Positions 3,326 to 25,505 of a stretch of DNA of 64,000 bases are shown here, in pieces. The notes under the pieces are model-generated. The model saw only the letters and a program-made list of their open reading frames with translations, was not told the origin of the DNA and did no database searches. Every line of letters begins with the position of its first letter. The first letter of the stretch is position 1. This stretch comes from Spirochaetales bacterium (GTDB taxonomy: Bacteria > Spirochaetota > Spirochaetia > SZUA-6 > DRHE01), in the NCBI GenBank assembly GCA_030615505.1, contig JAUWZD010000007.1, positions 4,702 through 68,701 on the forward strand, written 5' to 3'. A program made the translations under genes and the position numbers.

Positions 3326-4189
3326 TTAGAATATTTCCTCTGATAGTTCCTGAATTTGCTTGTAACTAAGAACCGGCCCATCCTTACAGACATACATAGT
3401 GCCAATATTGCATCGGCCGCACTTGCCGATTCCGCAGCTCATCCTTCTCTCTAAAGAGGTTATGATTCTATCCGGACTGAACCCCAAATCCAACAAGGGC
3501 AGCATGGTAAACTTCAACATTATCGGCGGGCCACAGACGAGCACAATAGCGTTCTCTGAGCTTGGCGCTATCTCCTGCAGCACCGCAGGTACGAATCCTT
3601 CCCGGCCCTTCCAGTCCTCATCACCCCTGTCCACGGTGACGTACATCTCTATTTCATCTCTCTCTTCCCACTCCTTTAGCTCGGGCTTGTATATGAGCTC
3701 GCCCGGGCTGCGTGCGCCGTAGATCACGGTGATATTTTCAAATCGGGCCCTGGACTTCTCGTTGAGCATATATCTGATGGTCGACCTCAGAGTTGTGAAG
3801 GCGAACCCCCCGCCCACGATAAGGACATTCTTCCTTTCCAACTCCTTCAAGGGAAAGGAATTCCCATAGGGTCCCCTCACGCCTATACGGGCGCCCTCCT
3901 CAAGATTGTGCAAAGCGGTTGTCACTACCCCTGTCGGGTAGCACTTCACTGTGAACTCCAGATATTGCTCATCCAGAGGCGAGGAGGCTATTCCTATAGG
4001 GCTTTCCCCGGCTCCCGGGACTGAAAGCATGGCAAACTGCCCACATTCGTATTTGAAGCTCTTCTTATCATCCCTGTTGCAGAAGGCCAGCCTGAATGTC
4101 TTGAGGTCCCTGGCCTCGTTCTCTATAGTGATCTTCTCGATGGTGACCAGTTTGGGGAAATATGGGTTAGCCATGCAATTTGAGCTCAC
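3326..4189 (-). CDS. FAD/NAD(P)-binding oxidoreductase with C-terminal [2Fe-2S] (AsrB / sulfhydrogenase gamma / PyrK-like)
   Basis: Ferredoxin-reductase-type fold motifs (GQFAMLSVPGAGESPIGIASSP; LIVGGGFAFTTLRST). C-terminal CGIGKCGRCNIG cluster motif. Last gene of the long operon; 4-bp overlap with the upstream gene. Confidence 0.75.
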   Translation of the reverse strand: MSSNCMANPYFPKLVTIEKITIENEARDLKTFRLAFCNRDDKKSFKYECGQFAMLSVPGAGESPIGIASSPLDEQYLEFTVKCYPTGVVTTALHNLEEGARIGVRGPYGNSFPLKELERKNVLIVGGGFAFTTLRSTIRYMLNEKSRARFENITVIYGARSPGELIYKPELKEWEERDEIEMYVTVDRGDEDWKGREGFVPAVLQEIAPSSENAIVLVCGPPIMLKFTMLPLLDLGFSPDRIITSLERRMSCGIGKCGRCNIGTMYVCKDGPVLSYKQIQELSEEIF

Positions 4190-5235
4190 TTAATCACCTC
4201 TGCCAATGTTTCTCTTATGTCCATGTTGACCGGGCAATTACTGATGCAGCGCCCGCAGCCGACACAGAAGATATCCTCGAAGTTTTCTACGGTATAGCGA
4301 AACTTGTGCATGATCCTCTGCCTCATCCTCTCCTCGTTCGAAGTCCTGGGGTTATGTCCCGAGGCTTCGAGGGTGAAGGAGGGGAACATGCAGGAGTCCT
4401 GAACTCTGATGCGCCTGCCCTTCAATTCGACCTTTTCATCGTAAAGACCGAAGCAGTGACAGGTCGGACACGTATAGGTGCAGACACCGCAGCCGAGGCA
4501 TCTCTGAGATATCTCCTCCCAGAGGGGGGAATCGAAGCAGCCCTGCAGCTTTTCGGTTATGCCGGAAAGATCGATTGTCTGAACCCTCTTCTCTGCAGCG
4601 GATACCTCCTCGTCTCTGGCTTTTATATCAGCTTTCCCGGGTTTCTTGAAGATGGCAGGGTAGTTCTCCATGAACCTCGTGCCTTTTTCAGAACAGGCCT
4701 CAAATAGAAGAGAGTCTTTCACCTCGAAGGCCAGTATGTCGGCCCCCTTCTTGCCAGCCGGGCTTGCCCCCACCGAGGTACAGAAGCAGGTCTTAAGCGG
4801 CTCCCTGCAGGCCAGTGATATTATGAGTGAGTTGTCCCTCCTGCTGCGATAGTAGGGATCAGTGAACTTCTCATCGATGAATATCTTATCCAGGTAGAGG
4901 AGTGAGAGCGCATCGCACGGCCTCACACCGAAGATCACGGCCTTCTCCTCGGACAGAGGAAGGTCTGTCATACTCTCATCCTCGTAGGTGCAGATCACCT
5001 CACTAAAGGGGAAGAACTGACGCTTGGGAGGCATCTTGAAGTTGGAGTAGTCAAGGGTCACCTCATCGTCCGGGCCGAGCTCGGAAAGGGACAGGCCCTC
5101 GCTTCCCCTGATGAGCCCATAGAATGTGCCCTCTTTTTTGACTGATGCGATGAGCTTCTTCAGGTCCTCTTTCTTTATCAATCCCTGCAACATCTCAATC
5201 CTCTTACGGTTCGGTGATAAAGCTCTGGCTATCAT
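4186..5235 (-). CDS. Fe-S protein, AsrA / sulfhydrogenase-beta-like (4Fe-4S clusters)
   Basis: Cys clusters CLGCGVCTYTCPTCHC and CVGCGRCISNCP. Pairs with the AsrB-like gene downstream, as in AsrAB/HydBG-type modules. Confidence 0.6.
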   Translation of the reverse strand: MIARALSPNRKRIEMLQGLIKKEDLKKLIASVKKEGTFYGLIRGSEGLSLSELGPDDEVTLDYSNFKMPPKRQFFPFSEVICTYEDESMTDLPLSEEKAVIFGVRPCDALSLLYLDKIFIDEKFTDPYYRSRRDNSLIISLACREPLKTCFCTSVGASPAGKKGADILAFEVKDSLLFEACSEKGTRFMENYPAIFKKPGKADIKARDEEVSAAEKRVQTIDLSGITEKLQGCFDSPLWEEISQRCLGCGVCTYTCPTCHCFGLYDEKVELKGRRIRVQDSCMFPSFTLEASGHNPRTSNEERMRQRIMHKFRYTVENFEDIFCVGCGRCISNCPVNMDIRETLAEVIK

Positions 5236-6199
5236 CCTGCTTGAAGGTCCACAGAGGCGGGAGCTCTTCGACTGAAAGACCGGGCACGTAATCGAACAGC
5301 TCTTTCACGTCCTTGACCAGTTTCTGGGTGAACAGCCGCAGGTCTATATCCATAGGACAGGCGTGGACGCAGGCGTCGCACTCCACGCATCTGCCGGCCT
5401 GGTGGAAGATCCGGCCTATGTGGTAGATCATCACATTCGAGAGCTCATCGCTTGCTCCTATCCACCTGGGTTTGGTTTGATCGACAAAACAGATCTTGCA
5501 GTAGCAATTCGGGCAGGCCTGCCTGCAGGCATAGCACCTGATGCATTTCGAGATCTCCTTGACAAAGCTCTGCCATCTCTCCTCGGTGGATTTGGCTTCG
5601 AATTCCCTGATCTTTTCATACCTTTCATCGCAGGCCTCTTTCGGCTCACCTTCGATCTGCAAGTCGGCTCCTTCCGCCAAAGGATGAGAGCATTCAAGAC
5701 AAGCCTCTGCGGTGACTTCCTCTCGTTTCAATCTCTTCTTCTCACCGGAGCTTGTGGTTACTTCAAGACTCCCGTCCACCTCTCCCTGGCAGGAATATGG
5801 GCCGGCACCGTCCAGGGCCGCCTCGACCTTTGCCGGATCGATCATGCCGGAACAGGGCATCCCGATGACGATGATATTTTCCTTAATTACCTGATTCTCC
5901 TTAAGCAGCCCCACGACCGATCGGGCATCGCAGCCCTTGGCGATGATCCCCACTCTCGGTGGCGGCGTCTCCTCTTTCTTATGCTCCTGCCTTTGGAAGA
6001 TCCGAGGAAGATAAACCGCCAGGTTATTTGTGCAGTAAGAGTTCCATACAAGCCTATCAACCTCCCCGGCGCTGTGCACGAAGCAGGGACGGCTCCTGAG
6101 CGGAAGCGAGCCATTCTCGTAGCCGATGAGGACGTCGATCTTCTCCCCGGCAAAAAGATCCTTCACCAAATCCTTTAGTTTAATCTCAATGTTGTTCAT
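5204..6199 (-). CDS. FrhB/FdhB-family Fe-S flavoprotein-like, HdrA-associated (paralog of 10280..11449)
   Basis: N-terminal domain with VGIIAKGCDARSV...IGMPCSG pattern. C-terminal ferredoxin-like CIRCYACRQACPNCYC...CVECDACVHACP. Clear paralogy to 10280..11449. Family assignment is tentative. Confidence 0.5.
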   Translation of the reverse strand: MNNIEIKLKDLVKDLFAGEKIDVLIGYENGSLPLRSRPCFVHSAGEVDRLVWNSYCTNNLAVYLPRIFQRQEHKKEETPPPRVGIIAKGCDARSVVGLLKENQVIKENIIVIGMPCSGMIDPAKVEAALDGAGPYSCQGEVDGSLEVTTSSGEKKRLKREEVTAEACLECSHPLAEGADLQIEGEPKEACDERYEKIREFEAKSTEERWQSFVKEISKCIRCYACRQACPNCYCKICFVDQTKPRWIGASDELSNVMIYHIGRIFHQAGRCVECDACVHACPMDIDLRLFTQKLVKDVKELFDYVPGLSVEELPPLWTFKQDDSQSFITEP

Positions 6200-6206
6200 T
6201 TCAGAA

Positions 6207-6641
6207 TCACAATCCCTTTTTCACAAGTTTTTTCGCTGGCCCCAATTCCTTTACCTCATCAACAACTTTTTCAATCAATGCGGCAAAGCGGCTGCCCTCG
6301 GATGCAGAAACCCATGAAAATTGCACCCGTTCAGGCTCGATGCCGAGGTAAGCGAGAAAATTCTTGAGCAGGGCGAACTTCCTCCTTGCCACGAGATTGC
6401 CACTGATATAGTGACAATCTCCAGGGTGGCAGCCGGAAACCAAAACCCCATCCACCCCCTGTTGCAGGGCTTTTACAATATACAATGGATTTATCCTTCC
6501 AGAGCAGGGCACTCTTATCACACGCAGATTAGGCGGATATTGAAGCCTGCTGACACCTGCCAGATCCGCACCTGCATAAGAGCACCAGTTACAGAGGAAT
6601 GCCACTATCTTGGGCTCCCAATTATCCACAGTTTTATTCAC
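6207..6641 (-). CDS. mvhD: MvhD/FlxD-like protein (methyl-viologen-reducing hydrogenase delta subunit family)
   Basis: IVAFLCNWCSYAGADLAG...GCHPGDCHY, the MvhD signature. Immediately downstream of an HdrL gene. Confidence 0.85.
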   Translation of the reverse strand: MNKTVDNWEPKIVAFLCNWCSYAGADLAGVSRLQYPPNLRVIRVPCSGRINPLYIVKALQQGVDGVLVSGCHPGDCHYISGNLVARRKFALLKNFLAYLGIEPERVQFSWVSASEGSRFAALIEKVVDEVKELGPAKKLVKKGL

Positions 6642-6671
6642 CTCTACCGTACCTACCTTATGCCAAAACTC

Positions 6672-9600
6672 TCAAATCGCTTCCAGCGCTTCTAAAATCT
6701 GTTCATTCCTGAAGCCCTTCAAGTCTATTGCCGATGCTAGGCACGTCGCGGCACAGGCGCCGCACCCCTTACACAGGGCTTCATTTATCGTGGCAATTCT
6801 CTTCTCGGTATCAAGCTCGATCGCATTATAGACGCACACCTCAACACAGGCACCGCATCCGTTGCATCTTTCCTCCCGTATGTATGAAACCTTGCCCTCG
6901 GCCTCGATCGTATCTTTGCTGAGAACCGTAGCGGCCCTTCCGGCCGCAGCCCTTGCCTGGGCTATGGTTTCCCCGATATCCTTGGGATAATGGGCAAGAC
7001 CGCAGACAAAAACACCGTCAGTAGCAAAATCAACCGGTCGAAGCTTGACATGTGCCTCAAGGAAGAATCCATCCGGGTCCAGAGGCACCTTCAAAAATTG
7101 AGAGAGAAGCTTGTTTTCCGGGTTGGGGATAATTCCCGCACTAAGCACTAAAAGGTCAGGATTAATGGCAAGCGTTTTGTTCAATATCTTGTCTCTTACA
7201 TCAACGGCCAAACCATTGCTATTTTTATGTACGTCGGGCTTTTCCTCTTTATCGTAGCGTATGAAGATAATGCCTTTCTCGCGGGCAGAGCGATAGAAGC
7301 TCTCCTTAAGCCCGTAGGTGCGGATATCCCGGAAGAGGACATATACTGCCGGCCTGGGATTTAGTTCTTTTAGCTTAATGGCATTTTTTATCGCATTTGA
7401 ACAACACACGCGGCTGCAGTAGGTCCTCTCATCATCCCTGGAACCCACACATTGAATCATCACCACCGTGGCTAAAGATGAGAGCTTTGATTTGTCGGAC
7501 CCATTCAGCATATCTTCTAACTCACGCTGTGTAACCACCCGGTCATCCTCGCCGTAGAGGTATTCCTTGGGTTGATACTCCTCTCCGCCTGAGGCGATGA
7601 TAACTACACCATGTTCGATTTCAGACAACGGGGGATCCAATACTGTCTTGAAATTCCCTATATACCCGCTTATTTCCCTGATCCTTGCATTCATATAGAG
7701 CTTAATCCTGGGATTTTTATTAACCTCTTCATCAAGTGCTTTCAGGATAGGTGCACTCTCCTCACCCTTGAGCGTAGTGTGGACATGCCTGAGATTTCCC
7801 CCCAGCTCCTTCTCCTTTTCCACCAGGTGAACCTGGAAGTTCTGCTCTGCAAGGTCAAGCGCAGCGGTCATACCGGCAAGGCCGCCGCCGATTATCAAGG
7901 CTTCCTTCTTGACATCGAGAGTTTCCTTGTACAACGGCTCGGCAAATACAACTTTAACAATAGAATTTCGAGTAAGATCCTTTGCCTTTTCCGTAGCCTT
8001 TTCAGGTTCCTTCTGATGAACCCAGGAGCATTGTTCTCGGATATTGGCAAATTCAAAGAGATAAGGGTTAACACCCGACTCTTTGAGGGTCTTCTGGAAC
8101 ATCGGTTCGTGAGTACGAGGGGTGCAGGCAGATACAACAATACGATTAAGGCCTTTCTCTTCTATAGCAGCCTTGATGATCTTCTGAGAATCCTGAGCAC
8201 AGGCAAAGAGGAGTTCCTGAGCATGCTTCACCCCGGGTAACCTTGAAACGTATTCCACCACCTGCGGAACATCAACGGTAGAAGCGATGTTTATCCCGCA
8301 CCGACAAATAAAAACTCCGACCCTGGGCGGAATGCCTCTAATATCTAACTCTTGCGGATATTCGAAGCGTATTTCCTTGCTCTGTAACTCACCCAGAAGC
8401 GCAGCTGCTGCTGAAGCCGCCCCGCTTGCCTCCATCACCGATTCGGGTATATCTTTAGGACCGGATATGCTCCCGCAGGAGAAGACCCCGGGCCTGGTGG
8501 TATTGACGGGCCGGAATGTATTCGTCTCCAGGAAACCCCTTGTATCCATAAACACAACTAATCGCCTGGCCGCATCCATGGATGATTCCGATGGCTCGAG
8601 GCCAACTGATAGTACAAGGAGGTCAAACTCTTCCCGGTTTATAATTCCCTCCTGGGTAATGTATTGGATTAGGAGGGTATCTGTATGGGGATTAGATTCC
8701 ACTGAAGCGATACGGCCGCAGATGAAACGAGTCTTATGTTGTTCCTTTGCCATGTCAACAAACCTGTCGAACCCCTTGCCGTAGGCCCTTACATCCATGT
8801 AAAAGATAGCGGTCTGAACCTCGGGTAAATGCTCCTGGGTAATTATCGCATCCTTGGCGGCCTGCATACAACAAATAGCAGAACAGTGCTCGTTTCCAGC
8901 CTGGGTCTCCCGGGATCCTACACATTGGAGAATCGCGATTCTTTTAGGTTCCTTCCCATCTGAAGGCCTTACTACATGGCCGCTGGTGGGGCCGGATGCG
9001 CTCAGTATCCTTTCGAATTCAATGCTCGTTACCACATTTGGGAAGAGCTTGTAGCCATATTCATTCTTGAGACTGGCATTAAACTCCTGAGAACCACAGG
9101 CCAGTATTACCGAACCAACCTCAAGCTCTAGAACCTGCTCCTTTTGTTCAAAATCTATGGCCTTTACTTCACAGAATTTCTCGCAGACCCGGCACTTTCC
9201 CGTCAGGTGATAGCGGCAGGTTTCCTTATCCATGATTGGAATGGCCGGGACAGCCTGAGGGAATGGTATGCGGATGCATTTGGTTTGGCTCAAGCCTTTA
9301 TTATATGGATCGGGTATCTTTATCGGGCACTTGGACATGCAGATCCCACACCCCGTACACTTATCTTCATCAACGTAGCGGGGCTTCTTGAGAACCTTCA
9401 CTCTGAAGTTGCAGGGAGAGCCTTCAAGGCTCAGAACCTCGGCATTGCTCACTATAGTGACATAGGGATGACTTCCCACCTCAACCAGCTTCGGGGAGAG
9501 GATGCACATAGCACAATCATTGGTCGGGAAGGTCTTGTCCAGCTGGGCCATCCGGCCGCCCACGGAGGGACCTTTCTCCACCAGGTAGGTCTCCACTCCC

Positions 9601-9701: not shown

Positions 9702-9719
9702 GTTAGAGCTTTCAAGAGC

Positions 9720-10199: not shown

Positions 10200-10279
10200 T
10201 ATCCGGCTCCTTATGAATTACAGAAATTACACACCTTTCAAGCGTTCGCCTATTCAAGTATACATGCCTCCGACTAAAA

Positions 10280-11859: not shown

Positions 11860-11929
11860 AAGATTCCTCCTGATTCGGCACTAATTCTATTGGTAAAGCT
11901 CATAAAACCCGAGCAAACATTCTTATACT

Positions 11930-14959: not shown

Positions 14960-14979
14960 GATACCTTCTTCTGACCTCT

Positions 14980-15834: not shown

Positions 15835-15837
15835 TGA

Positions 15838-16398: not shown

Positions 16399-16401
16399 TC
16401 T

Positions 16402-19400
16402 CTACTCCAATGCCGCGCTGACCATTTCAAATAATTGTTTCGCCCTGAATCCAAGCTGTTGCACAGCTCCCGAAGGACAGGCGCTTGCACAGGCCCCACA
16501 GCCCTTACACAGAGCCGCGTTAATTTTAGACACTCTCTTTCCCCTCACCGTAACTATCTCAGGTGCGTCATAGCTGCAAACAGAGACACAAATACCGCAG
16601 GCTGCACACACATCCTCATCCACAGAGCAGACGATTGCCTCCGGCGTGTATTCTGCCTTGGATATGATCGTGGCGGCACGACTGGCCGCTGCTTCGGCCT
16701 GGGTAATCGTCTCTTCGACATTTTTAGGTGCATGAGCCATGCCGGCAAGGAAGACACCGTCTACGGAGAAATCCACCGGACGCAGCTTCATATGAGCTTC
16801 AAGGAAAAACTTCTCCTTAGTCAGGGGGGTTTTAAGCATTTTTGCAATATCCTCCACATCGTCCTGTGGCACTATGGCCGGTGCAAGTACAAGAAGATCG
16901 CTGTCGATCTGCAGCATGCTTCCCAGGATAGGATCCTTGGTCTCGATCCGTAATCTTCCATTGGCCGCAGACACAAGCGGCTTCTGATCCACATCATAGC
17001 GGACAAACCTTACCCCCTTCTCTCGTGCCGCCGTATAATACCTCTCCCGGAAGCCATAAGTTCTCAGTTCCCGATACAGGATAAATACGTCCGTTTCCGG
17101 ATAATCCTCTTTTATTTTAAGCGCGTTCTTGATCGCCTGCGAGCAGCATATTCTGCTGCAGTACATCCTGTCCCCTTCGCGTGAACCAACGCATTGGATC
17201 ATCACCACCCTCTTTGCCTCGAACTCTCCCCGGGCAAGCTTTTCCTCCAGCTCACGCTGGGAAACTACCCTTTCCTCGGAGCCGTACATGTACTCGTCGG
17301 GCATACGTTCCCTGGCCCCGGTGGCTACGATTACTGCGCCGTGTTCAATCTCAGCTTCTTTCCCGTCCTGCGTGATCGCGGTCTTAAAATTGCCGACAAA
17401 CCCGTCAACGGATTTTATATTCGCGCCCATCCAGACCCTGATATTCGGATGGTTATTGACCTTCAGGATCATCTCTCCAAGCTGTCTCTGCGGATCTTCT
17501 GCACCAAGAAGGTAGTGCACATTCTTGAGATTTCCACCAAGTTCTTCCTCTCTTTCTACGATATTCACCTCGAAGCCCTGCTCAGCGAGATTGAGAGCCG
17601 CAGTCATTCCACCCATGCCGCCGCCGATGACCAGAGCCCCGCTCTTGACCGGTATGGGCATGCTGTAGAGAGGCTCTATCAGGCGGGCCTTGGCAACTGC
17701 CATACGAACCAAATCCTTGGACTTTCTCGTCGCTTCTTCCGGTTGGTGCATATGTACCCAGGAGCACTGGTCTCGGATATTCGCCATCTCGAAAAGATAA
17801 GGATTTAGACCCGCATCCCGAACGGTTTCCCGGAATAGCGGCTCATGAGTGCGGGGGGTGCAGGATGCGACCACAACCCTGTTGAGATTGTACTCCTCTA
17901 TCGCCTTCTTGATGCTTTCCTGAGTATCGATGGAACAGGTGTAGAGGTTGTCTTGGGCAAAAACAACGTCAGCTAACGTCTTGGCATATTCACGTACCTC
18001 AGGTACGTTTACTACTCCGCCGATGTTCACACCACAGTGACATACGAAAACGCCTATGCGAGGTCTTTGACCGGATACGTCTCTCTCGGGAGGCCATTCC
18101 TTCTGCGTCACAAGGGTACCGCGCTTCTCAGTTAATAGGGCCATAGCCTTTGCTGATGCGCTCGAGGCCTCCATCACGGTTTCCGGAATGTCCTTCGGCT
18201 CGGAAAACGGCCCACAGACGTATACACCCGGCCTTGACGACTCTACAGGATTGAACATTGAGGTTAAGGCGAACCCATTGCTGTCGAGCTCCACCTCGAA
18301 TTTCTTTGCCAGTTCCTTGACCTCCGCAGGTGGACGCAGTCCTGTCGAAAGAACAACAAGGTCGAACTCCCTGGTGACAAAATGGTTATCTTCATCGGTA
18401 TAACCGATACGGAGGTTCCTGGTCTGCTCTATCTCTTCAACAGAGGAGGGCCGACACCGGGTGTAGATTACACCCAGCTCTTTGGCGCGTTCGTAGTAGG
18501 CATCGAAGCCCTTGCCGAAGGCCCGCAGATCCATAAAGAAGATATTGCACTCAAGGTCCTCCTCATGTTCCATGGAGATGATAGCCTCCTTGGTAGCGTA
18601 CATGCAGCAAACCGACGAACAGTAGTTTCGTTCCGCGTCCCTTGACCCGACGCACTGGATGAAGGCGATCCTCTTTGGCGCCTTGAGGTCTGATGGACGG
18701 ACGATCTTCCCCCCATGCGGACCGCTTGCTGAGAGCAAGCGCTCGAATTGGAGACTGGTGATTACGTTCGGATACCAGGCATAGCCCAGCTCAAGCTTTT
18801 GACCTGCCTCGAAAATACAGTAGCCGGGAGTAAGGATGGCAGCTCCAACCTCGATTTCGACGACCTCGTCTTCCTGCGAATAGTCTATCGCCCCTGCCGG
18901 GCAGAAGGCCTCACATGCCTTACAGGCGCCGGTAAGAAAATGTATGCAGTGCTCTCTGTCGATTACCGGCACGTTGGGAAGAGCCTGGGGAAAGGGAATA
19001 TAGATGGCAGGTCGACTTACAAGCCCGGCATTATAGTCGGAGGCTATAGGCCGGGCTTGTCGGGTAGCAACATCTTCCACGGTCGCTGTACTGGTCGGAC
19101 ACACAACCTGGCAGGCCCCGCAGGCCATGCAGATAGGTGAATGTTTGTCATAGGCCGGCCCGACCTTACGGGTGTCGCCGCGGCCGCTGAAGTCGATCGC
19201 TCCTGTTTTCATCAGCTCTGAGCATACTCTGGTGCACAGGCCGCAGAGTATGCAGTCTTCGTTCTTCTTCGGGAAACGAGTATCAGTGACCCCAAGCTCC
19301 GCAGCGACCTCTTTTACCTTCTCCGAATCCGGGCACCGGGCCAGGAGGAGTTCCGCCATGATCCGCCGCGTCCTTTGCACCTTCTCGCTGTTTGTGCGGA

Positions 19401-19632
19401 CCACCAGACCTTCCTGCAAAGAGAAGGTACAGGCAGCCTTGAGCTGAGTGCGTGCCCGCTCCCCCACCTCTACCAGGCAGAGGCGGCAGGCGCCGTAGCT
19501 GGGTAAGCCTTTGCGATAGCAGAGAGTGGGTATCTTTATGCCCAACTCCTGGCAAGCCTCCAGGACGGTGCTGCCTGATTCCGTGCTCACCTGCCGGTCG
19601 TCGATTTTTAGGGTGATCTTACTCATAGGCAT
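16402..19632 (-). CDS. Fusion protein: NuoG/HydA-N-terminus-like [2Fe-2S]+[4Fe-4S] domain joined to an HdrL-like flavoprotein that lacks the N-terminal FAD-binding segment (1076 aa)
   Basis: N-terminus ITLKIDDRQV...CYRKGLPSYGACRLCLVEV (plant-type 2Fe-2S as in NuoG/HydA), then CILCGLCTRVC and CMACGACQVVCP. The HdrA body picks up at IPFPQALPNVPVIDREHCIHFLTGACKACEAFCP, which aligns to the HdrL region after residue ~130. FIQCVGSRD...CSSVCC, then a second FAD domain with MIQCVGSRE...CSRICC. Confidence 0.8.
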   Translation of the reverse strand: MPMSKITLKIDDRQVSTESGSTVLEACQELGIKIPTLCYRKGLPSYGACRLCLVEVGERARTQLKAACTFSLQEGLVVRTNSEKVQRTRRIMAELLLARCPDSEKVKEVAAELGVTDTRFPKKNEDCILCGLCTRVCSELMKTGAIDFSGRGDTRKVGPAYDKHSPICMACGACQVVCPTSTATVEDVATRQARPIASDYNAGLVSRPAIYIPFPQALPNVPVIDREHCIHFLTGACKACEAFCPAGAIDYSQEDEVVEIEVGAAILTPGYCIFEAGQKLELGYAWYPNVITSLQFERLLSASGPHGGKIVRPSDLKAPKRIAFIQCVGSRDAERNYCSSVCCMYATKEAIISMEHEEDLECNIFFMDLRAFGKGFDAYYERAKELGVIYTRCRPSSVEEIEQTRNLRIGYTDEDNHFVTREFDLVVLSTGLRPPAEVKELAKKFEVELDSNGFALTSMFNPVESSRPGVYVCGPFSEPKDIPETVMEASSASAKAMALLTEKRGTLVTQKEWPPERDVSGQRPRIGVFVCHCGVNIGGVVNVPEVREYAKTLADVVFAQDNLYTCSIDTQESIKKAIEEYNLNRVVVASCTPRTHEPLFRETVRDAGLNPYLFEMANIRDQCSWVHMHQPEEATRKSKDLVRMAVAKARLIEPLYSMPIPVKSGALVIGGGMGGMTAALNLAEQGFEVNIVEREEELGGNLKNVHYLLGAEDPQRQLGEMILKVNNHPNIRVWMGANIKSVDGFVGNFKTAITQDGKEAEIEHGAVIVATGARERMPDEYMYGSEERVVSQRELEEKLARGEFEAKRVVMIQCVGSREGDRMYCSRICCSQAIKNALKIKEDYPETDVFILYRELRTYGFRERYYTAAREKGVRFVRYDVDQKPLVSAANGRLRIETKDPILGSMLQIDSDLLVLAPAIVPQDDVEDIAKMLKTPLTKEKFFLEAHMKLRPVDFSVDGVFLAGMAHAPKNVEETITQAEAAASRAATIISKAEYTPEAIVCSVDEDVCAACGICVSVCSYDAPEIVTVRGKRVSKINAALCKGCGACASACPSGAVQQLGFRAKQLFEMVSAALE

Positions 19633-20081
19633 TCACCTTTTCTAGTGTCAAAGCGGGTAACATCTGTACCTCTCCTGTGCTCGTAGAGGAAATCGACCCC
19701 GCGATGCCCCGCCACCAGTGTCTCCAGGGTAGCGTAAGTGTCGCCCAGTGGTTTGCGGTCAGGATGGCTGCGGCGGAAGGTTGCCCTGATCCTCGTGCCG
19801 GCCTCCGGCCTGGAGGATATTTCAAACTTACCCTCTGCTTCCCTGGTTGCTTGAGCCAATAGTGCCAGGCCCAACCCGATTCTCTTTTCAGACTTTGTGG
19901 TAAAGAAGGGATTGGCTGCCTGGCGCATTGTCTCCGAATCCATACCCTTGCCGTCATCCTCGATCTGAAGGGTAAGCAGGTCATTTTCCAGGTCCTCGAC
20001 CAAAGAGATCCCGATCAGTTTTGCCTCAGCGCGGATCGAGTTCTCTACGATGTCCATAATATGAAACGATAGATCTTTCAT
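19623..20081 (-). CDS. GHKL-type ATPase (HATPase_c, anti-sigma regulatory factor-like)
   Basis: IEDDGKGMD...GLGLALL motifs; 152 aa with no kinase H-box. Confidence 0.6.
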   Translation of the reverse strand: MKDLSFHIMDIVENSIRAEAKLIGISLVEDLENDLLTLQIEDDGKGMDSETMRQAANPFFTTKSEKRIGLGLALLAQATREAEGKFEISSRPEAGTRIRATFRRSHPDRKPLGDTYATLETLVAGHRGVDFLYEHRRGTDVTRFDTRKGECL

Positions 20082-20797
20082 TGCCCTGTAATTATCCTCC
20101 GTCCCCCTGTTCGCCTGAGGGCCATCCCTATCTCCGCTGCTGTTCCATTCTCAACTAGAAAGCAAGTCTGCCTGGTACCGATCTCCCCGGGACGGTGAGC
20201 GTCCGAAGACCGAATCACAGGTGTATTTCCAGGCAGTGCAGGTAGTCTTTCGGAGCATACCTCCACCCCGTCCAGCTTCAGGTCCTCCGGGATGAATCCG
20301 AGCTGGCTGAGCACGCTGAAGCTAGGACGGTCCACATGAGATGCTATCGCCAGGCCATTGAACTCGTGGATAATCCGCACGACTTCATCCAGACTCAGAT
20401 CCGTGGCCCCGATCAACAGCTTCCGATTGCGGCGGATCACCCTGTCCTGTCCATCCATCACCAGTTGTTCACCGAAGATGCCGGGATCGTTCTCGCCCGG
20501 GAGATTGTCATAGATGACATCCTGAACCGCACTCAGAAGGCGGTCCTCCTGGAAGAGCCCCAGCACATGCACTTCCTCACGGGAGGTTATCTCCATACCT
20601 CCGATCACGGCCAGCCCAACCTTTTCTGCTGCTCGGACCACCGCCTGGACGTTCTCCGCTGAGTTGTGGTCACAGATCGCAATCAGATCCAATCCTTTCT
20701 CTCGAGCTTGCCTGGTCACCGTCAAAGGAGACATCTCCCTCTCTGCGCACGGTGAAAGGCAGGTATGTATATGCATATCAGCATGCAGTGCCCTCAC
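20078..20797 (-). CDS. PHP-domain phosphoesterase
   Basis: N-terminus ADMHIHTCLSPCA, then DLIAICDHN, the PHP metal-binding histidine/aspartate pattern. Confidence 0.7.
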   Translation of the reverse strand: MRALHADMHIHTCLSPCAEREMSPLTVTRQAREKGLDLIAICDHNSAENVQAVVRAAEKVGLAVIGGMEITSREEVHVLGLFQEDRLLSAVQDVIYDNLPGENDPGIFGEQLVMDGQDRVIRRNRKLLIGATDLSLDEVVRIIHEFNGLAIASHVDRPSFSVLSQLGFIPEDLKLDGVEVCSERLPALPGNTPVIRSSDAHRPGEIGTRQTCFLVENGTAAEIGMALRRTGGRRIITGQ

Positions 20798-21165
20798 TTC
20801 CTGATTCCGGACAGGCCCAGATTGTACAGCCGGCCTATCAGCTCGAAGGCCGGAAGGGCGCTGACCAGCAGCGGAATATTCTCTTCCCTGGCCTTCTGGA
20901 GGGTATCTGCTTCGGGCTCACGCCCGTTGACCAGGACTATTCCAGCCAACCCTTTCATGCTCGCTACGGCGACGGTGTTCTGGTGCGTTTGCAGAGTCAC
21001 CCACAGGTCCCCTTCCTCAGCGTTAGCTATCACATCGCTGATCAGATCGCTGGCGTATCCCCCCTGCACCTCGTTCGAGAGTGAACCATTGCCGGCCTTC
21101 ACTTCAAGCTTAAGCCTTTTTGTGATCTCACTCAGATCCATCTTCGTTCCCCACCAGAATCTCAA
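20794..21165 (-). CDS. DRTGG domain protein
   Basis: ASDLISDVIANAEEGDLWVTLQTHQNTVAVASMKGLAGIVLVNG matches the DRTGG domain pattern. Paralogous to 22074..22478. Confidence 0.6.
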   Translation of the reverse strand: MRFWWGTKMDLSEITKRLKLEVKAGNGSLSNEVQGGYASDLISDVIANAEEGDLWVTLQTHQNTVAVASMKGLAGIVLVNGREPEADTLQKAREENIPLLVSALPAFELIGRLYNLGLSGIRK

Positions 21166-22117
21166 CTTTTAGCCTCGTCCCTTTGCCTACAGTTGAGCTA
21201 AGGTTCATTCTGTCAGAACACTTCTGTATATTGTGAAGGCCCATTCCTGCACCAAATCCGAGCTCCCTCACCCACTCCGGGGCTGTGGAGAAGCCCGGCT
21301 TAAGGGCCTGATCGATATCCGGAATCCCGGGGCCATCATCCTCCACCTCGATCTGGATAATTTCAGGCTCGATCTTCGTCTTTATTTTTCCGCCATTGGT
21401 GAAAAATATTAGATTCATCTCCGCCTCGTAGGTGGCAATGGCGGCTCGGCGTGTGATCTGGGGGGATATTCCCAGCCGCAGAAGGGTGGTTTTTAGACCG
21501 CCGGCGCTGTTGCCTGCCCGGCTGAAATCCCCTCCGCTCACCTGGTACTCAAAGATCAGCGCGCTCTTGTCGGCAACTATATCCTCGAAGATATGGCTCG
21601 ACCTGGTGCTGTGTATCTCCGCCTGGCGGTAACCGATATCTAACTTTTTAAGCAGTCCCCCGATAATGTCGCCCTTGGTGATCACCCCGGTCAGCTTTCC
21701 GATCCCCCTGGCGAGTACCGGCAGTCGGCCGAAGCCGAACCGCTCAAGATTGTTGAACGCCTGGATGAGGGGTTCATCCTCAAAAACGCTGATGACCTTT
21801 CTGGTCATTCGATCAACTACGGCACAGTCAGGCCCACCGTCATATAGCCACCTGATGAAATCCTCCAGGCTGATGATACCTACCAATCGTCCTTCCTCGA
21901 CTACTGGTGTACCGGAGATGCGATTATCTCGCAAGACTGCCCGTAGATCGCTCATCTGGGTTGAAGGGATGACTTTGATAACCCCCCTCTTCATCACATC
22001 GCCGACCCGGAGCTCATAAACGAGCTCCTGAATCTTGGTTATTTCTCTTTCTATCAATGGGAGTTTACCCTCCTTATCTAGCCCCGACGGCCAGGCCCTT
22101 TGAGTACAGCCGGCCAC
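21128..22117 (-). CDS. CBS-pair plus GHKL ATPase domain protein
   Basis: Two CBS-like segments (VMKRGVIKVIPSTQMSDL...; VDRMTRKVISVFEDEPL...), then IEVEDDGPGIPD...GFGAGMGLHNIQ (HATPase_c). Confidence 0.7.
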   Translation of the reverse strand: MAGCTQRAWPSGLDKEGKLPLIEREITKIQELVYELRVGDVMKRGVIKVIPSTQMSDLRAVLRDNRISGTPVVEEGRLVGIISLEDFIRWLYDGGPDCAVVDRMTRKVISVFEDEPLIQAFNNLERFGFGRLPVLARGIGKLTGVITKGDIIGGLLKKLDIGYRQAEIHSTRSSHIFEDIVADKSALIFEYQVSGGDFSRAGNSAGGLKTTLLRLGISPQITRRAAIATYEAEMNLIFFTNGGKIKTKIEPEIIQIEVEDDGPGIPDIDQALKPGFSTAPEWVRELGFGAGMGLHNIQKCSDRMNLSSTVGKGTRLKVEILVGNEDGSE

Positions 22118-22478
22118 AAGATTCGTACATCAACAGTTGCGTAACGAACAGCGGCATCCCCTTCTCCTTAGCCAGCGTGATTGTTTCCGGCTGGGGTTTC
22201 TTACCACGGACGAAGCATATAGCGGTTAAATCCAATATTTCGGCCGTGCGTATCACCTGCGAATTGGTCAATCCGGTCAAGAGCAGAGAACCTGGAGTGC
22301 AGCAGGTCAGCATATCGCTTATGAGGTCGCTGGCGTGGCCTGAGCTGACCTCCTGGTCGCCGCAGTCGGTGTTCCAGACCAACTCCGCTTGGAGAACCTG
22401 CTGAACGTCTTGCAGCTTCACTGCACCGTTACCGCCTCGGACCTGCAAACGTCTCGGCAAACGCCGCACTTGATGCAC
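22074..22478 (-). CDS. DRTGG domain protein (start uncertain; ORF overlaps the NuoF-like gene by ~60 nt)
   Basis: HASDLISDMLTCCTPGSLLLTGLTNSQVIRTAEILDLTAICFVRG; paralog of 20794..21165. Confidence 0.55.
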   Translation of the reverse strand: MHQVRRLPRRLQVRGGNGAVKLQDVQQVLQAELVWNTDCGDQEVSSGHASDLISDMLTCCTPGSLLLTGLTNSQVIRTAEILDLTAICFVRGKKPQPETITLAKEKGMPLFVTQLLMYESCGRLYSKGLAVGAR

Positions 22479-24211
22479 TTCTCCTGATCAATGGTCTGCG
22501 GTTTCCCCTTCTCGCCCGAGATCGCCTGCTGCGGGCAATTCTTTACACAGAGCAGGCAGGCATTGCACTTCTCCGCATCGATGGTATACGTTATCAGAGC
22601 CCTGCAGACACCTGCCGGACAGCGCTGCTCATTGATATGCGTCTCGTACTCATCCTTGAAGTAACGCAAGGTGCTCAATACCGGGTTCGAAGCCGTAGCG
22701 CCCAACTGGCAAAGGGAGCCGTCCTTTACCGCCTGGCTCAATTCCTCGAGCAGCTGGATATCCCCCTGATTGCCCTTGCCATCGCAGATATCTGTAACGA
22801 TCCGATACATGGCATCCACTCCCTCGCGGCAGGCGGTGCACTTTCCGCAAGACTCGCTCCGCAAGAACTCGAGGAAGTATCTGGCCACATCGACCATGCA
22901 GTTATCCTCATCCATCACAATCATCCCGCCCGAGCCCATCATCGAGCCGACCTCGGTCAGGCGCTCGTAGTCTATCGGTAGGTCCAGGAGGGACGCCGGG
23001 ATACATCCACCTGAGGGTCCTCCCGTCTGCACAGCCTTGAAGGCCTTGCCGTTCTCCATCCCGCCGCCGATATCGAAGATGATCTCTCGCAGCGTGATAC
23101 CCATTGGGACCTCAACCAGGCCGGTGTTCCTCACCTTGCCAACCAGTGCGAAGACCTTGGTTCCCTTGCTGGTCTCCGTGCCGATCTGTGAGAACCACCC
23201 TGCTCCCCGCTTGATAATCTCGGGGACGATTGCCAGTGTCTCCACATTATTGAGAACCGTCGGCTTCTCCCATAGTCCTTTCTCGGTAGCGTGAACTTGC
23301 TTCGAGAACGGCTCCGGCGGATCTCCCTGAATCGAGGCTCTCAGGGCACTGGACTCACCGCAGACAAACGCCCCAGCGCCCCTGAACACGGATATATCAA
23401 AGTCAAATCCTGTCCCCAGAATGTCATGGCCCAGGAGGCCGTATTCCATGGCCTGCTTGATGGCCAGGTTCAGCCGTTGCAGTGCCAGGGGGTACTCCGT
23501 GCGGATGTAAATGTAGCCCTGGCCGGCGCCTACTGCCTTGCCTGCGATAGCCATACCTTCGAGTACGGAGTGAGGATCACTTTCTATTATGCTTCTATCC
23601 ATAAAAGCGCCGGGATCGCCTTCGTCGGCATTACATATGATATATTTTTCCTTGCTGTGATGACTTGCAGCTGATTCCCATTTCCTCCCGGTGGGGAAGC
23701 CGGCGCCCCCCCGCCCGCGGAGACCGGAATCCTTGACAGTCTGGATGATCTCCTGGCTGGTCATTGAGGTGAGGGCCCTGGCCAGCGCCCGGTAGCCTCC
23801 TCGGGCAATTGCTTCCTCGATCTTCTCAGGGTCGATCATTCCGCGATTGCGCAGGGCGATCAGCCGCTGCTTCTCGAAGAAATCAATCTCACTCATCTTC
23901 GGGACCGGCGCTTTCTCAAGCGAAGGAGTGTACATGAGCCGCTTGACCGGACGCCCTTTCAAGAAGTGCTCCTCGACCAGGTGGGGAATATCCTTCTCGG
24001 AAAGAAGCTGGTAAAAGATATTGTCCGGCTGGACGACCATTACCGGGCCCTGGGCGCAGAATCCGTTGCAGCCGGTCATGACAACGGCGATCTCATCCTG
24101 TAGCTCATGCTTTCCCAACTCCTGTTCAAGGTCGGCTTTAATCCGAAAGGACCCGTTCGAGACACAACCGGTTCCGGCACAGAGCATTAGATGCATCCGG
24201 GACTTTTTCAT
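22418..24211 (-). CDS. NuoF/HydB-like NADH-binding FMN flavoprotein with N-terminal thioredoxin-like [2Fe-2S] and C-terminal 2x[4Fe-4S] (bifurcating-hydrogenase beta-subunit type)
   Basis: GRGGAGFPTGRKWE (FMN/NADH site), ESCGKCTACREG (NuoF 4Fe-4S), N-terminus CAGTGC...CNGFCAQGP, C-terminus CNACLLCVKNCP / CIKCGVCRDVC. Confidence 0.9.
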   Translation of the reverse strand: MKKSRMHLMLCAGTGCVSNGSFRIKADLEQELGKHELQDEIAVVMTGCNGFCAQGPVMVVQPDNIFYQLLSEKDIPHLVEEHFLKGRPVKRLMYTPSLEKAPVPKMSEIDFFEKQRLIALRNRGMIDPEKIEEAIARGGYRALARALTSMTSQEIIQTVKDSGLRGRGGAGFPTGRKWESAASHHSKEKYIICNADEGDPGAFMDRSIIESDPHSVLEGMAIAGKAVGAGQGYIYIRTEYPLALQRLNLAIKQAMEYGLLGHDILGTGFDFDISVFRGAGAFVCGESSALRASIQGDPPEPFSKQVHATEKGLWEKPTVLNNVETLAIVPEIIKRGAGWFSQIGTETSKGTKVFALVGKVRNTGLVEVPMGITLREIIFDIGGGMENGKAFKAVQTGGPSGGCIPASLLDLPIDYERLTEVGSMMGSGGMIVMDEDNCMVDVARYFLEFLRSESCGKCTACREGVDAMYRIVTDICDGKGNQGDIQLLEELSQAVKDGSLCQLGATASNPVLSTLRYFKDEYETHINEQRCPAGVCRALITYTIDAEKCNACLLCVKNCPQQAISGEKGKPQTIDQEKCIKCGVCRDVCRSEAVTVQ

Positions 24212-24597
24212 AGCGCCTGCTCACTGCCAATGGCCAGGGCGTAATCGGCAACGATCTTGCCGCCCATAACGTGCTCTGTAAATATCTTATTCACCTTCTC
24301 CTCTGTGAGATCTATATATTTAACCGGGGCTTGCCCTTCAAGCTCGACGGTCATCATTGGCTCCTTGCTGCACAAGCCTGCGCAACCGGAGCTAGTGATG
24401 ATAATATCGCCAGTATCGAGCTCGCTAACGCATTCGATCACGGCAGACATTATTTTACGCGCCCCGGCAGATATCCCGCAGGTCCCCATGTGGATAGTAA
24501 TCTTGGCCCGCCCCGATCCTTCGCGCAGAGACATCACCTTTTTCATACGCTCGGTAATCTTGTCAAGATCCTCTGGTCGCAGCTTAGCCATTTTCAC
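24208..24597 (-). CDS. Thioredoxin-like [2Fe-2S] ferredoxin (HndB/NuoE-like small subunit)
   Basis: ITIHMGTCGISAGARK...SSGCAGLCSKEP. 129 aa, typical small subunit of NADH-dependent hydrogenase/FDH modules. Confidence 0.7.
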   Translation of the reverse strand: MKMAKLRPEDLDKITERMKKVMSLREGSGRAKITIHMGTCGISAGARKIMSAVIECVSELDTGDIIITSSGCAGLCSKEPMMTVELEGQAPVKYIDLTEEKVNKIFTEHVMGGKIVADYALAIGSEQAL

Positions 24598-24605
24598 TTC
24601 CTTCG

Positions 24606-25505
24606 CTAGGCAGGATATTTGTCCAGCGCCTTAACTATCTTTTGCGGGGTAATTTTGCCGTAAACATCTTCATCGATGGTCACTACTGGTGCCAGGCCGC
24701 AGCAGCCCAGACAGCGCACAGCTTCCAGCGTAAAGCGTCTATCCCCGGTTGTTCTGCCGGCTTGAACATCAAGCTCCCGCTCAAGGCTTTCCAGAATCCG
24801 CGAGCCTCCCTTAACATGGCAGGCGGTCCCCAAACACACCCTGATGATATGCTCGCCCCGGGGCTCGAGGCTGAACACGTTGTAGAATGTAGCGATACGC
24901 AAGACCCGTGATAGAGGTATTCCAACGGCCTCGGATACATGCCGCATCGCGCCAGGCGGGAGCCACTTGTACCTGGCGTTAATGTCCTGAAGGATAGGGA
25001 GAACCGATCCCCTTTCTCCCTCATGTTCGGCGAGGATTCGGTTCACCTCGCTGAGCTCGCCGGGAGTGAGCTCCAGCGGCTCCGGTTCCGCGGGTTCAAC
25101 ATAGGCCCTGTTCCTCACCAAACAGTTCGCCATGCACTCTCCGCAGCCTGTGCATTGATCAGCTTTTACCGAGCGAGCCTTTTTCCTGACGCGGACTTTG
25201 AAGGCCCCAGGTTCTCCCTCTATGCTTTCAACTTCTGAGTAGGTAAGCTTCTCAATGTTTATGTGGCTCCCGCACTCTACCATTCTTGGTGCAAGTGTGC
25301 ACATTGCACAGTCATTGGTTGGAAAGGTCTTGTCGAGCTGGGACATGACCCCGCCGATAGCGGGACTTCTTTCCACCAAATAGACCTTAAACCCTGCATT
25401 TGCCAGGTCTAAAGATGCCTGCATACCTCCGATGCCTGCCCCCACAACCAGGACTGAACCCACCTTGTTATTACTACCCTGACTACTCAAAGCCATAGCC
25501 TCCAC
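24606..25505 (-). CDS. Fusion protein: HdrA N-terminal FAD-binding segment joined to a NuoE-like [2Fe-2S] domain; first gene of the operon
   Basis: Residues 1..~130 (VLVVGAGIGGMQASLDLANAGFKVYLVERSPAIGGVMSQLDKTFPTNDCAMC...CTGCGECMANC) run parallel to the first ~130 aa of both HdrL genes. The remainder (LPILQDINARYKWLP...RVCLGTACHVKG...CLGCCGLAPVV) is a NuoE/24-kDa-subunit fold. Confidence 0.8.
   Translation of the reverse strand: MEAMALSSQGSNNKVGSVLVVGAGIGGMQASLDLANAGFKVYLVERSPAIGGVMSQLDKTFPTNDCAMCTLAPRMVECGSHINIEKLTYSEVESIEGEPGAFKVRVRKKARSVKADQCTGCGECMANCLVRNRAYVEPAEPEPLELTPGELSEVNRILAEHEGERGSVLPILQDINARYKWLPPGAMRHVSEAVGIPLSRVLRIATFYNVFSLEPRGEHIIRVCLGTACHVKGGSRILESLERELDVQAGRTTGDRRFTLEAVRCLGCCGLAPVVTIDEDVYGKITPQKIVKALDKYPA

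Follow-up and report, generated by a model that had tools for sequence, protein, structure and literature searches.

Three type II HdrA-centred modules in a 20-gene cluster of a Spirochaetales bacterium: a candidate coupled flavin-based bifurcation system

The closest described systems and the layout of the cluster

The subject of this study is a run of 20 genes encoding HdrA-type flavoproteins and their iron-sulfur (Fe-S) partners in a stretch of 64,000 nucleotides, hereafter the window, from a Spirochaetales bacterium (GenBank assembly GCA_030615505.1, contig JAUWZD010000007.1, positions 4,702 to 68,701). The nearest solved analogue is the class II benzoyl-CoA reductase (BCRII) of Geobacter metallireducens, Bam[(BC)2DEFGHI]2, for which cryo-electron microscopy (cryo-EM) shows HydBC-type and HdrA-type modules that work in series within a single complex, BamE being a fused dimer of HdrA (bioRxiv 10.64898/2026.04.10.717634).

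Other described systems resemble parts of the cluster. HdrA with an additional TrxR domain was defined as type II in methane-metabolising archaea, and the classes named there (types I, Ia, II and III) include no Bfu-inserted or split form (PMC12054007). HdrL, described in Desulfobacterium autotrophicum, was originally an HdrA/glutamate-synthase fusion with an NADH site (PMC2702500). Contacts between FdhB, MvhD and HdrA are present in the solved Fdh-Hdr supercomplexes (PDB 7bkb, 8rvu, 9t1s), and FlxABCD-HdrABC of Desulfovibrio vulgaris (Ramos et al., 2015, as cited in PMC4759654 and PMC5947623) combines, in the account given there, an NAD(P)H flavoprotein, two Fe-S proteins and an MvhD homologue with HdrABC. 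The classification of the Bfu family names Bam-Bfu but no Hdr-Bfu type, with 17 clades unassigned, and its supplement contains no Hdr entry (Schut et al., 2022, PMC9304861). Units of nuoEFG-mvhD-hdrA were already listed at annotation level in the genome paper of Desulfotignum phosphitoxidans (2013); no name for a NuoE/NuoG-split HdrA or for an Hdr-Bfu type was found in the searchable literature, although an earlier description may exist.

The genes, numbered G1 to G20 in the order of transcription (25505 to 3326, minus strand throughout), fall into three recurrent modules: M1, a Bfu-type module with a split HdrA (G1-G9); M2, HdrC-HdrB-HdrA-MvhD-FdhB-like (G10-G14); and M3, HdrC-like-HdrA-MvhD-FdhB-like-FlxB-FlxA (G15-G20). 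We favor, at slightly better than an even chance, the reading that G1-G20 form one transcription unit encoding a coupled cytoplasmic flavin/Fe-S bifurcation system of three type-II-HdrA-centred modules. For comparison, about 165 related loci (L-numbers) were collected, comprising 80 from GTDB found with G9, 80 from metagenomes found with G12, and 5 contexts of individual homologues, and their open reading frames (ORFs) were classified against the 20 window proteins.

From the ORF listing and coordinate arithmetic, all 20 ORFs run head to tail on the minus strand (25505-3326), with the widest spacings between G14 and G15 (80 bp) and between G12 and G13 (70 bp) and with gaps of 3-30 bp or overlaps at the other junctions; the overlaps reach 4-61 nt with the longest ORFs and are smaller if alternative starts with better ribosome-binding sites are chosen. 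The tatC gene (25611-26420) lies 105 bp from the start of G1 (25505), and a convergent polyprenyl synthase gene (2457-3320, plus strand) lies 5 bp from the stop of G20 (3326), both identified by Pfam (TatC, polyprenyl_synt). The tight minus-strand run and the flanks are as described in an earlier reading of the window (the original prediction), and its gene order was right at the domain level (Pfam, NCBIfam) with the labels of several genes now corrected. In related contigs each of the 20 ORFs is matched by a full-length homologue of equal size, so that none is a pseudogene. A candidate operon promoter of sigma-70 type (TTGACA-17-CAGAAT, 25528-25556, minus strand) is a consensus match in the 105-bp gap upstream of G1, although the total of such matches is not above that in shuffled sequence. 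Likewise, promoter- and terminator-like matches within the cluster are no more frequent than in shuffles, the 70-bp gap, the 80-bp gap and the 3' end of the cluster fold no better than shuffles, and no Rex-type box was found upstream of G1, matches across the window being at chance level. Taking the layout as a guide, a single transcript for G1-G20 is plausible.

The HdrA proteins and their partners

Protein identities were assigned with Pfam and NCBIfam profiles and PDB sequence searches, and the HdrA chains were tiled by BLASTP. G1 (24606-25505) begins with the N-terminal ~130 amino acids of a type II HdrA and continues as a NuoE/HydC (BfuC) [2Fe-2S] domain, residues 152-297 matching HydC (8a6t_C, 4e-45); three motifs are found in its N-terminal part, namely GxGxxG for FAD, the cysteine pair of DKTFPTNDCAMC and, from the inserted ferredoxin domain, the first CxxCxxCxxxC. 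G9 (16402-19632) starts with a BfuA-like NuoG/HydA N-terminal module fused to the rest of a type II HdrA. Its residues 1-~185 carry a [2Fe-2S] and two [4Fe-4S] clusters, residues 1-189 matching Fer2_4, Fer4_7 and the FeFe_hydrog_A6/HoxU/NuoG N-terminal profiles, and its HdrA part comprises the second half of the inserted ferredoxin domain, TrxR1, an N-domain-like segment, TrxR2 and a C-terminal ferredoxin domain. On the NCBIfam HdrA2 profile, G1 residues 17-131 fall on positions 141-256 and G9 residues 186-502 on positions 247-562; by BLASTP, G1 residues 4-131 align with residues 1-128 of G16 (51% identity) and G9 residues 168-1073 with residues 115-1008 (49%). Because this tiling is contiguous, G1(N) and G9(C) each supply one half of a third such protein, beside the ~1000-residue products of G12 and G16. 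The two fusions named in the original prediction (NuoE-HdrA(N) and NuoG-HdrA) are thus real, yet they belong to one split HdrA and not to two partial paralogues, and the three HdrA-type paralogues that it counted are G1(N)+G9, G12 and G16.

The inserted ferredoxin domain has two Cys motifs, and the break between G1 and G9 separates them; in methanogen HdrA this domain is the ferredoxin-reducing, low-potential arm (PMC12054007). Since G1 supplies the FAD motif together with the cysteines of DKTFPTNDCAMC and of the first cluster, the flavin site and the inserted ferredoxin domain would be assembled from G1 and G9 jointly, and the presence of NuoE- and NuoG-type fusions on both HdrA halves offers strong evidence, as far as gene structure goes, that the HydBC-type and HdrA-type modules would form one enzyme.

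The flavoprotein of this module is G3 (22418-24211), with an N-terminal Trx-like [2Fe-2S] domain, an FMN/NADH core with [4Fe-4S], and a C-terminal 2x[4Fe-4S] ferredoxin-like domain. Its residues 4-590 align with HydB (7q4v_B, 787 bits), and 7t2r_B, 8a6t_B and 9n5u_B also match, the B subunits of NiFe-Bfu, Stn and Nfn-Bfu being among the matches, whereas complex I NuoF covers residues 125-530 only, at ~340-375 bits. An NADH module had been predicted and is borne out by G3 and the C-terminal half of G1, but it is of HydBC/Bfu rather than complex I type. A complex I N-module (NuoEFG) was considered and rejected, as the window contains no other nuo genes, G3 has both HydB-specific extensions, and its NuoF equivalog score is 470 against a cut-off of 559. 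All three Bfu subunits can be recognized: G3 is a full-length HydB/BfuB with both extra Fe-S domains, the C-terminal half of G1 is a HydC/BfuC, and the N-terminus of G9 is a short BfuA. The difference from the known family is that the third-substrate module in the window is an HdrA fused to both BfuA and BfuC. Bfu-type bifurcation or confurcation of NADH, ferredoxin and a third substrate is predicted from these subunits.

Between G1 and G3 lies G2 (24208-24597), a small thioredoxin-like ferredoxin with putative cluster ligation and weak profile matches under the curated cut-offs; a G2-type gene occupies the same place in 27 of 42 related loci, and by operon position we take it to resemble HndB. 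Between nuoF and nuoG-hdrA, and therefore inside the genes of the split protein, is a five-gene non-redox cassette (G4-G8, 20078-22478). It consists of a small protein without a family match (G4, 22074-22478; homologues in 22 loci) that is a positional paralogue of the DRTGG-like G6 and is classed with it as DRTGG-like, a CBS pair joined to a GHKL (SpoIIAB-like) ATPase/kinase domain (G5, 21128-22117), the small DRTGG-like protein itself (G6, 20794-21165; E 2.8e-4, under the cut-off, conserved in related loci), a PHP-family phosphoesterase (G7, 20078-20797) and a stand-alone GHKL/HATPase_c protein (G8, 19623-20081), the assignments of G5, G7 and G8 being from Pfam and NCBIfam. The cassette is found at that position in 22 of 42 related loci, across phyla, and probably regulates the enzyme; regulation by a SpoIIAB-like kinase and a PHP phosphatase is a guess from the family names.

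The other two HdrA proteins, G12 (11930-14959) and G16 (6672-9701), are 1009 amino acids each. Compared with M. wolfeii HdrA, G16 is permuted (M. wolfeii residues 4-135 map onto 459-590 of G16, 141-505 onto 10-378, and 507-647 onto 869-1007); the corresponding architecture is TrxR1 with the inserted ferredoxin domain (10-~450), the N-domain (459-590), a second TrxR, and the C-terminal ferredoxin (869-1007), and both GxGxxG and CxGxRD...CSxxCC recur at ~600-760 of G16. Two TrxR-like FAD domains per chain, in permuted order, are what defines type II HdrA. The motif CxGxRD...CSxxCC is read in G9, G12 and G16, and the lysine equivalent to Lys409 of MwHdrA (K283 in G16; Lys280 in BamE) is kept in all six TrxR domains of these proteins. 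The three HdrAs share 38-49% identity overall (41% between the HdrA part of G9 and G12, 38% between G12 and G16).

The two 1009-residue proteins had been labelled HdrL. No Fer4_20 or GltD-length match was found in G9, G12 or G16 (Pfam, NCBIfam), so that the label is not strictly applicable to G12 and G16, which are double-TrxR type II HdrAs like BamE; HdrL as originally described was rejected for all three. In type III HdrA (PMC12054007), GltD sits in the same inserted ferredoxin domain as the Bfu insertion of the window, where the insert is instead a three-subunit Bfu module that splits the gene. The same place is used in unsplit relatives (L057 with 1492 amino acids, L036, L136 and L092), which carry a GltD-like NAD(P)H domain ~25 residues from the position of the split and are the closest homologues of both G1/G9 halves (57-67% identity); in L057, Fer4_20 lies at 165-241 and PRK12771 scores 557 bits over 163-665. 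In addition, many related loci encode a NuoF of ~1000 amino acids or longer (L006 at 4013-7084, L007, L015, L017-L019, L027, L038, L041, L045, L046 and L064). In the NuoF of L006, the only one scanned with Pfam, a fused GltD-like Fer4_20 + Pyr_redox_2 replaces the C-terminal 2x[4Fe-4S] tail, which suggests a putative NADH/NADPH variant of the M1 enzyme.

In M2, G10 (15838-16398) is an HdrC-like 2x[4Fe-4S] subunit by the HdrC/QmoC N-terminal profiles, under the equivalog cut-offs, and G11 (14980-15834) is HdrB-like (157 bits against a cut-off of 345). The two CCG motifs of G11, read from its sequence (C9...C41C42...C77xxC80 and C150...C190C191...C227...C233xxC236), are both intact, which argues for a disulfide-type high-potential site in M2 and upholds the earlier call of a catalytic-type HdrC/HdrB pair. 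G12 is followed by an MvhD/FlpD [2Fe-2S] adaptor (G13, 11437-11859) and an FdhB-like Fe-S adaptor that possibly binds flavin (G14, 10280-11449; 9t1s_M 6e-34, also 7bkb_E). M3 opens with a short HdrC-like 2x[4Fe-4S] protein without a neighbouring HdrB (G15, or HdrC2, 9720-10199), and after G16 come an MvhD/FlpD adaptor in the FlxD position (G17, 6207-6641), an FdhB-like Fe-S protein in the FlxC position (G18, 5204-6199; 7bkb_E 3.6e-29), a sulfhydrogenase-beta/AsrA-family Fe-S protein in the FlxB position (G19, 4186-5235; ShyB 192 bits against AsrA 148; 9nez_B 1.6e-44), and a FAD/NAD(P)H-binding [2Fe-2S] protein of the sulfhydrogenase-gamma/AsrB/PyrK family in the FlxA position (G20, 3326-4189; 9nez_C 3.5e-53). 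The two HdrA-MvhD-FdhB-like trios of the original prediction (G12-G14 and G16-G18) stand, and their FdhB-like members are true homologues of FdhB in the solved Fdh-Hdr supercomplexes (E 6e-34 for G14, ~4e-29 for G18). The Asr/Flx-like end module stands as an NAD(P)H-linked, Flx-like pair (G19/G20) that is nearer to sulfhydrogenase beta/gamma than to AsrA/AsrB, and the Mvh partners as the adaptors G13 and G17, with no Mvh hydrogenase. Two candidates were rejected here: anaerobic sulfite reductase AsrABC (no AsrC-like gene; AsrA 148 against 323 and AsrB 194 against 289; higher scores with sulfhydrogenase models; best PDB match 9nez, sulfhydrogenase I) and the Mvh [NiFe]-hydrogenase (matches to MvhD/FlpD domains only, none to MvhA or MvhG).

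The set of motifs of methanogen-type HdrABC (HdrA, HdrC, HdrB) is present in G9, G12, G16, G10 and G11, but the scores remain below the equivalog level (HdrA 790-1010 against 1100-1400, HdrB 157 against 345, HdrC 69-91 against 160). The only model that reaches its NCBIfam equivalog cut-off is NuoE, marginally (145 against 141 bits), and for this reason all gene names are given here as "-like". No in-frame TGA occurs in any of G1-G20, and both MvhD copies have Cys at the position of the selenocysteine (Sec) of BamF.

Compared with BCRII, the likeness extends to the HydBC-type BamGHI, the fused-dimer HdrA BamE (~1000 amino acids), the MvhD-type BamF and the HdrBC-like BamD, and BCRII has the feature of two energy-coupling modules in series in one soluble assembly. 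However, the cluster in the window lacks the tungsten catalytic module BamB/BamC; it encodes HdrB and HdrC as two proteins and keeps both CCG motifs, in contrast to BamD with its degenerate distal cluster; it has three HdrAs rather than one; its TrxR2 keeps the flavin-N5 lysine where BamE has Gln768; and its MvhD proteins are without selenocysteine. The Bfu module is fused into the inserted ferredoxin domain of HdrA, whereas the Bfu subunits of BCRII are separate and feed the C-terminal ferredoxin domain and BamF. With Bfu or GltD at the ferredoxin-reducing arm, the Bfu-split HdrA would be topologically distinct from BCRII. Membership in class II benzoyl-CoA reductases was rejected, as no AOR-family protein (BamB) was found among the scanned window ORFs.

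The remaining systems are matched more locally. G12 and G16, with their extra TrxR and beside MvhD and FdhB-like genes, resemble type II HdrA of the methane-metabolising archaea (PMC12054007), from which the window differs in its bacterial host, where use of F420 is presumably absent. The HdrA-MvhD-FdhB trio of the methanogen Fdh-MvhD-HdrABC supercomplexes (7bkb, 8rvu, 9t1s) occurs twice in the window, but the cluster has no FdhA, and the FdhB-like protein is followed by an NAD(P)H module (M3) or an HdrC-like wire (M2). M2 resembles Sfum_0819-0824 of Syntrophobacter fumaroxidans (hdrABC, an Fe-S protein, mvhD and hdrL), which was detected proteomically (PMC5947623). Compared by gene order and domain types, G15-G20 follow the order hdrC-(hdrB)-hdrA-flxD-flxC-flxB-flxA of the D. 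vulgaris locus DVU2398-2404 as the citing papers present it, from which M3 differs in lacking hdrB and in having a type II (double) HdrA.

Recurrence of the modules and the case for coupling

M1 keeps its order (G1-type gene, an optional ferredoxin, NuoF, an optional cassette, NuoG-HdrA) in more than 15 bacterial and archaeal phyla, its carriers including Spirochaetes, Planctomycetota, Acidobacteriota, Aminicenantes, Bacteroidota, Actinomycetota, Chloroflexota, Thermotogae, WOR-3, Elusimicrobia and Thermoplasmatales. G1-like fusions form 3911 clusters at E <= 1e-40, and the closest named homologue of G9 is from a metagenome-assembled genome of Spirochaetes (81% identity). Among the loci with a NuoG-HdrA fusion (n=51), the G1-type fusion lies upstream in 40 of 42 and NuoF in 41 of 42. 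MvhD follows M1 directly in 41 of 45 loci, HdrCB or a QmoC-like membrane protein precedes it in 24 of 34, and a second HdrA is found downstream in only 8 of 28. In the window, M1 has neither an MvhD of its own nor an upstream HdrCB or QmoC-like gene, and such parts are present here only in M2.

The upstream HdrC-like gene of one such locus (L015, 3537-4751) encodes a membrane protein that resembles QmoC over its full length (184 bits, positions 6-360 of the 360 in the profile), and genes of similar size (380-404 amino acids) are found in L019, L022-L024, L027, L028, L032, L038, L045, L050, L057, L060-L062, L069, L071-L074, L077 and L080, which include the GltD-type form of HdrA; L015 alone was scanned. 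Such a partner would suggest the quinone pool as the high-potential acceptor there, as against the soluble HdrB in the window.

Linkage between the modules is also recurrent. M3 follows M1 in L002, L011, L025, L039, L042, L070 and L078 and M2 in L087-L089, L128 and L136, and in L020 the Flx-type genes come directly after the MvhD of M1. The full layout with three HdrAs is limited to relatives of the window, namely L083 and L087 (91-95% identity) and L001 (complete genome CP070696, labelled Spirochaetaceae), while L004 has the same layout up to the end of its contig, after the second HdrA, and L136 and L092 keep it with GltD in place of the Bfu split. The triple linkage is thus kept from 95% to ~60% identity. 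L001 also has, at 19956-21068, a gene for a complete additional FrhB/FdhB protein of 370 amino acids with N and C domains; it stands after HdrC2 and before the third HdrA, where the window has no gene.

The composition of M3 varies with its surroundings. Where another HdrA module lies just upstream, the Flx-linked HdrA is accompanied by an HdrC-like gene but no hdrB (10/10 loci), whereas both stand-alone loci (2/2) have hdrC and hdrB; moreover, in the related loci, FdhB-like genes of the G14 type are always followed by HdrC2 and then HdrA. Because HdrC2 and HdrA always follow G14-type genes, because hdrB-less HdrC2 divides 10/10 against 2/2 in this way, and because M1 lacks MvhD and HdrCB, we argue for electron transfer from G15 through G14/G13 to G12. 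Functional coupling is argued more generally from the fact that M1 and M3 lack here the parts that they carry when alone (MvhD/HdrCB and HdrB, respectively).

Taken together, we hypothesize that the cluster acts as a coupled redox hub that links NADH, NAD(P)H, ferredoxin and a disulfide, possibly with its modules wired in series. NAD(P)H would enter at G20/G19 and pass its electrons through G18 and G17 to the flavin of G16, from which a low-potential electron would go to ferredoxin and a high-potential electron, by way of G15, G14 and G13, to the flavin of G12, where the high-potential exit would be HdrC/HdrB and a disulfide. M1, as a covalent hybrid of a HydBC/Bfu-type NADH and ferredoxin module within an HdrA, would tie the same hub to NADH and ferredoxin through its Bfu core, which is predicted to communicate with the HdrA flavin via the NuoG-like clusters and the inserted ferredoxin domain. 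The Bfu module would occupy the docking place of free ferredoxin in methanogen HdrA and replace free ferredoxin at that arm, a part that GltD may play in the relatives. The direction of flow may be reversed (confurcation). A stronger form of this idea, which we think improbable, is a single megacomplex with three-stage serial bifurcation, in which the high-potential electron of each HdrA goes to the flavin of the next and finally to HdrB, and the Bfu core lies in the low-potential arm of the last HdrA. If true, flavin-based coupling sites would be chained in a longer cascade than the pair in BCRII, and a single particle could balance NADPH, NADH and ferredoxin against a disulfide, or make electrons below the potential of ferredoxin for a partner.

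Several observations weigh against a coupled system and fit the rather doubtful, though by no means far-fetched, alternative that three independent enzymes (Bfu-HdrA, HdrABC-MvhD-FdhB-like and Flx-Hdr-like) lie side by side, each with its own role, and share only regulation or cofactor maturation. Each module also occurs on its own, as the original prediction had suggested checking: M1 alone is the commonest layout, M2 stands by itself in dozens of metagenome contigs, in several of which the 10-kb flanks contain neither M1 nor M3 (for example L096, L103, L105, L107 and L111), and Flx-type loci of the hdrCB-hdrA-flxDCBA type stand alone with hdrC and hdrB (L059 and L113). In L084 (1-13225) and L127 (78% identity to G9), M1 is divergent from HdrC-HdrB-HdrA-MvhD-FdhB-like-HdrC2 across a shared region of ~380 bp, and so co-transcription of M1 and M2 is not obligatory. 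The HdrAs are old paralogues at their 38-49% identity, and the statistic behind serial wiring comprises 12 loci that are not phylogenetically independent. Since all six TrxR domains keep the lysine, the sequence does not tell which flavins bifurcate, and since the equivalog cut-offs are reached by NuoE alone, substrates cannot be transferred from the named enzymes. On the other hand, independent enzymes would leave M1 here without its own MvhD and HdrCB and M3 with an HdrC-like protein but no HdrB; the triple linkage would have persisted from 95% to ~60% identity, even with GltD in place of Bfu (L136, L092); and the spacing of 3-20 bp where modules adjoin (G9/G10 and G15/G16) is suggestive of translational coupling. 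One machine, as originally claimed, is thus supported only in part: the triple linkage is lineage-conserved (L083, L087, L136 and L001), but the modules are also found alone and M1 is divergent in L084 and L127. A response-regulator gene follows M1 in both of the latter loci.

Other schemes keep the parts together but assign them another purpose. An Nfn/Stn-like transhydrogenase that couples NADH (Bfu FMN), ferredoxin and NADPH (G20), with the HdrAs as wiring or extra coupling sites and no physiological disulfide, is very unlikely in our view. It would account for the two distinct pyridine-nucleotide modules, for the relatives that swap Bfu for GltD or fuse GltD to NuoF as in Stn/Nfn-Bfu enzymes (8oh5, 9n5u), and for L025, L039 and L042, which combine M1 and M3 without any HdrB; however, the HdrB of the window has both CCG motifs complete, known transhydrogenases need a single bifurcating site so that three HdrAs would be redundant, and NADPH as the nucleotide of G20 is only putative. 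A BCRII-like low-potential reductase, whose catalytic subunit (AOR-type, formate dehydrogenase or hydrogenase) is encoded elsewhere and docks on the FdhB-like adaptors or on free inserted ferredoxin domains, seems to us a shade less probable still. Parts like BamDEFGHI are present, FdhB-like adaptors normally bind FdhA in solved structures, and no donor module is encoded beside G14; yet no gene for an AOR-family protein, a cytoplasmic FdhA or a hydrogenase large subunit was found among the scanned ORFs of the 64-kb window, in which the sole FdhA is a Sec enzyme beside NrfD and Fer4_11 genes ~22 kb away. As a weaker point, no such gene recurs by the modules in the ~165 loci, where the screen recognised only homologues of the 20 window proteins.

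Surroundings of the cluster and its significance

The cluster differs from its immediate neighbours in codon usage: the GC content at third codon positions (GC3) is 0.50-0.71 within it, against 0.36 in tatC, 0.34 in the polyprenyl synthase gene and 0.30 in an IS1595 transposase gene, and within the cluster it is lower in G14-G17 (0.50-0.55) than in G18-G20 and G1-G13. Other genes of the window reach GC3 values of 0.55-0.64, and relatives at 91-95% identity have the same cluster. Both horizontal acquisition and expression-linked codon bias could explain the step, and the evidence for transfer is suggestive rather than decisive. Two IS1595-family transposase genes and another DDE transposase gene are found at 26543-27517 (minus strand), 61165-61932 and 61929-62762 (both plus strand), one IS1595 copy lying just past tatC and adjoining the cluster. 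In the low-GC region past this element, the 534-residue product of a gene at 28943-30547 (plus strand) combines FMN_bind and Fer4_5 domains and, going by the names of these families, would be a membrane redox protein of the NosR/NapH kind.

Genes for a selenocysteine formate dehydrogenase are clustered at 45014-50844 and 55382-56720 (minus strand). An in-frame TGA (50266-50268) in the context EHQARI*HSATV joins the ORFs at 50266-50844 (Molybdop_Fe4S4) and 47737-50253 (molybdopterin oxidoreductase), and after this Sec FdhA come genes for a Fer4_11 subunit, for a membrane subunit of NrfD type and for FdhE, with FdhD and a MobA-like gene nearby. The machinery for selenocysteine lies at 31867-40834 (minus strand) and includes a selD-like gene (31867-32856), selB (37284-39242), selA (39292-40716) and tRNA-Sec (40741-40834).

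The cluster is a composite of known kinds of module, and the Bfu-split type II HdrA, which is widespread and unnamed in the searched literature, is its most notable feature. Before the BCRII structure of 2026, there was no report of two different bifurcation modules in a single complex, and BCRII is specialised to degraders of aromatic compounds, whereas the HydBC-HdrA fusion family spans more than 15 phyla with its members annotated only as "NuoE" or "FAD-dependent oxidoreductase". The window, in which three HdrAs occur together with Bfu and Flx-type modules, holds the richest version and is therefore a good template for expression and cryo-EM. If the coupling is true, these genes would represent a widespread and so far unnamed Hdr-Bfu class, and would provide a tractable system for the chaining of bifurcation sites.

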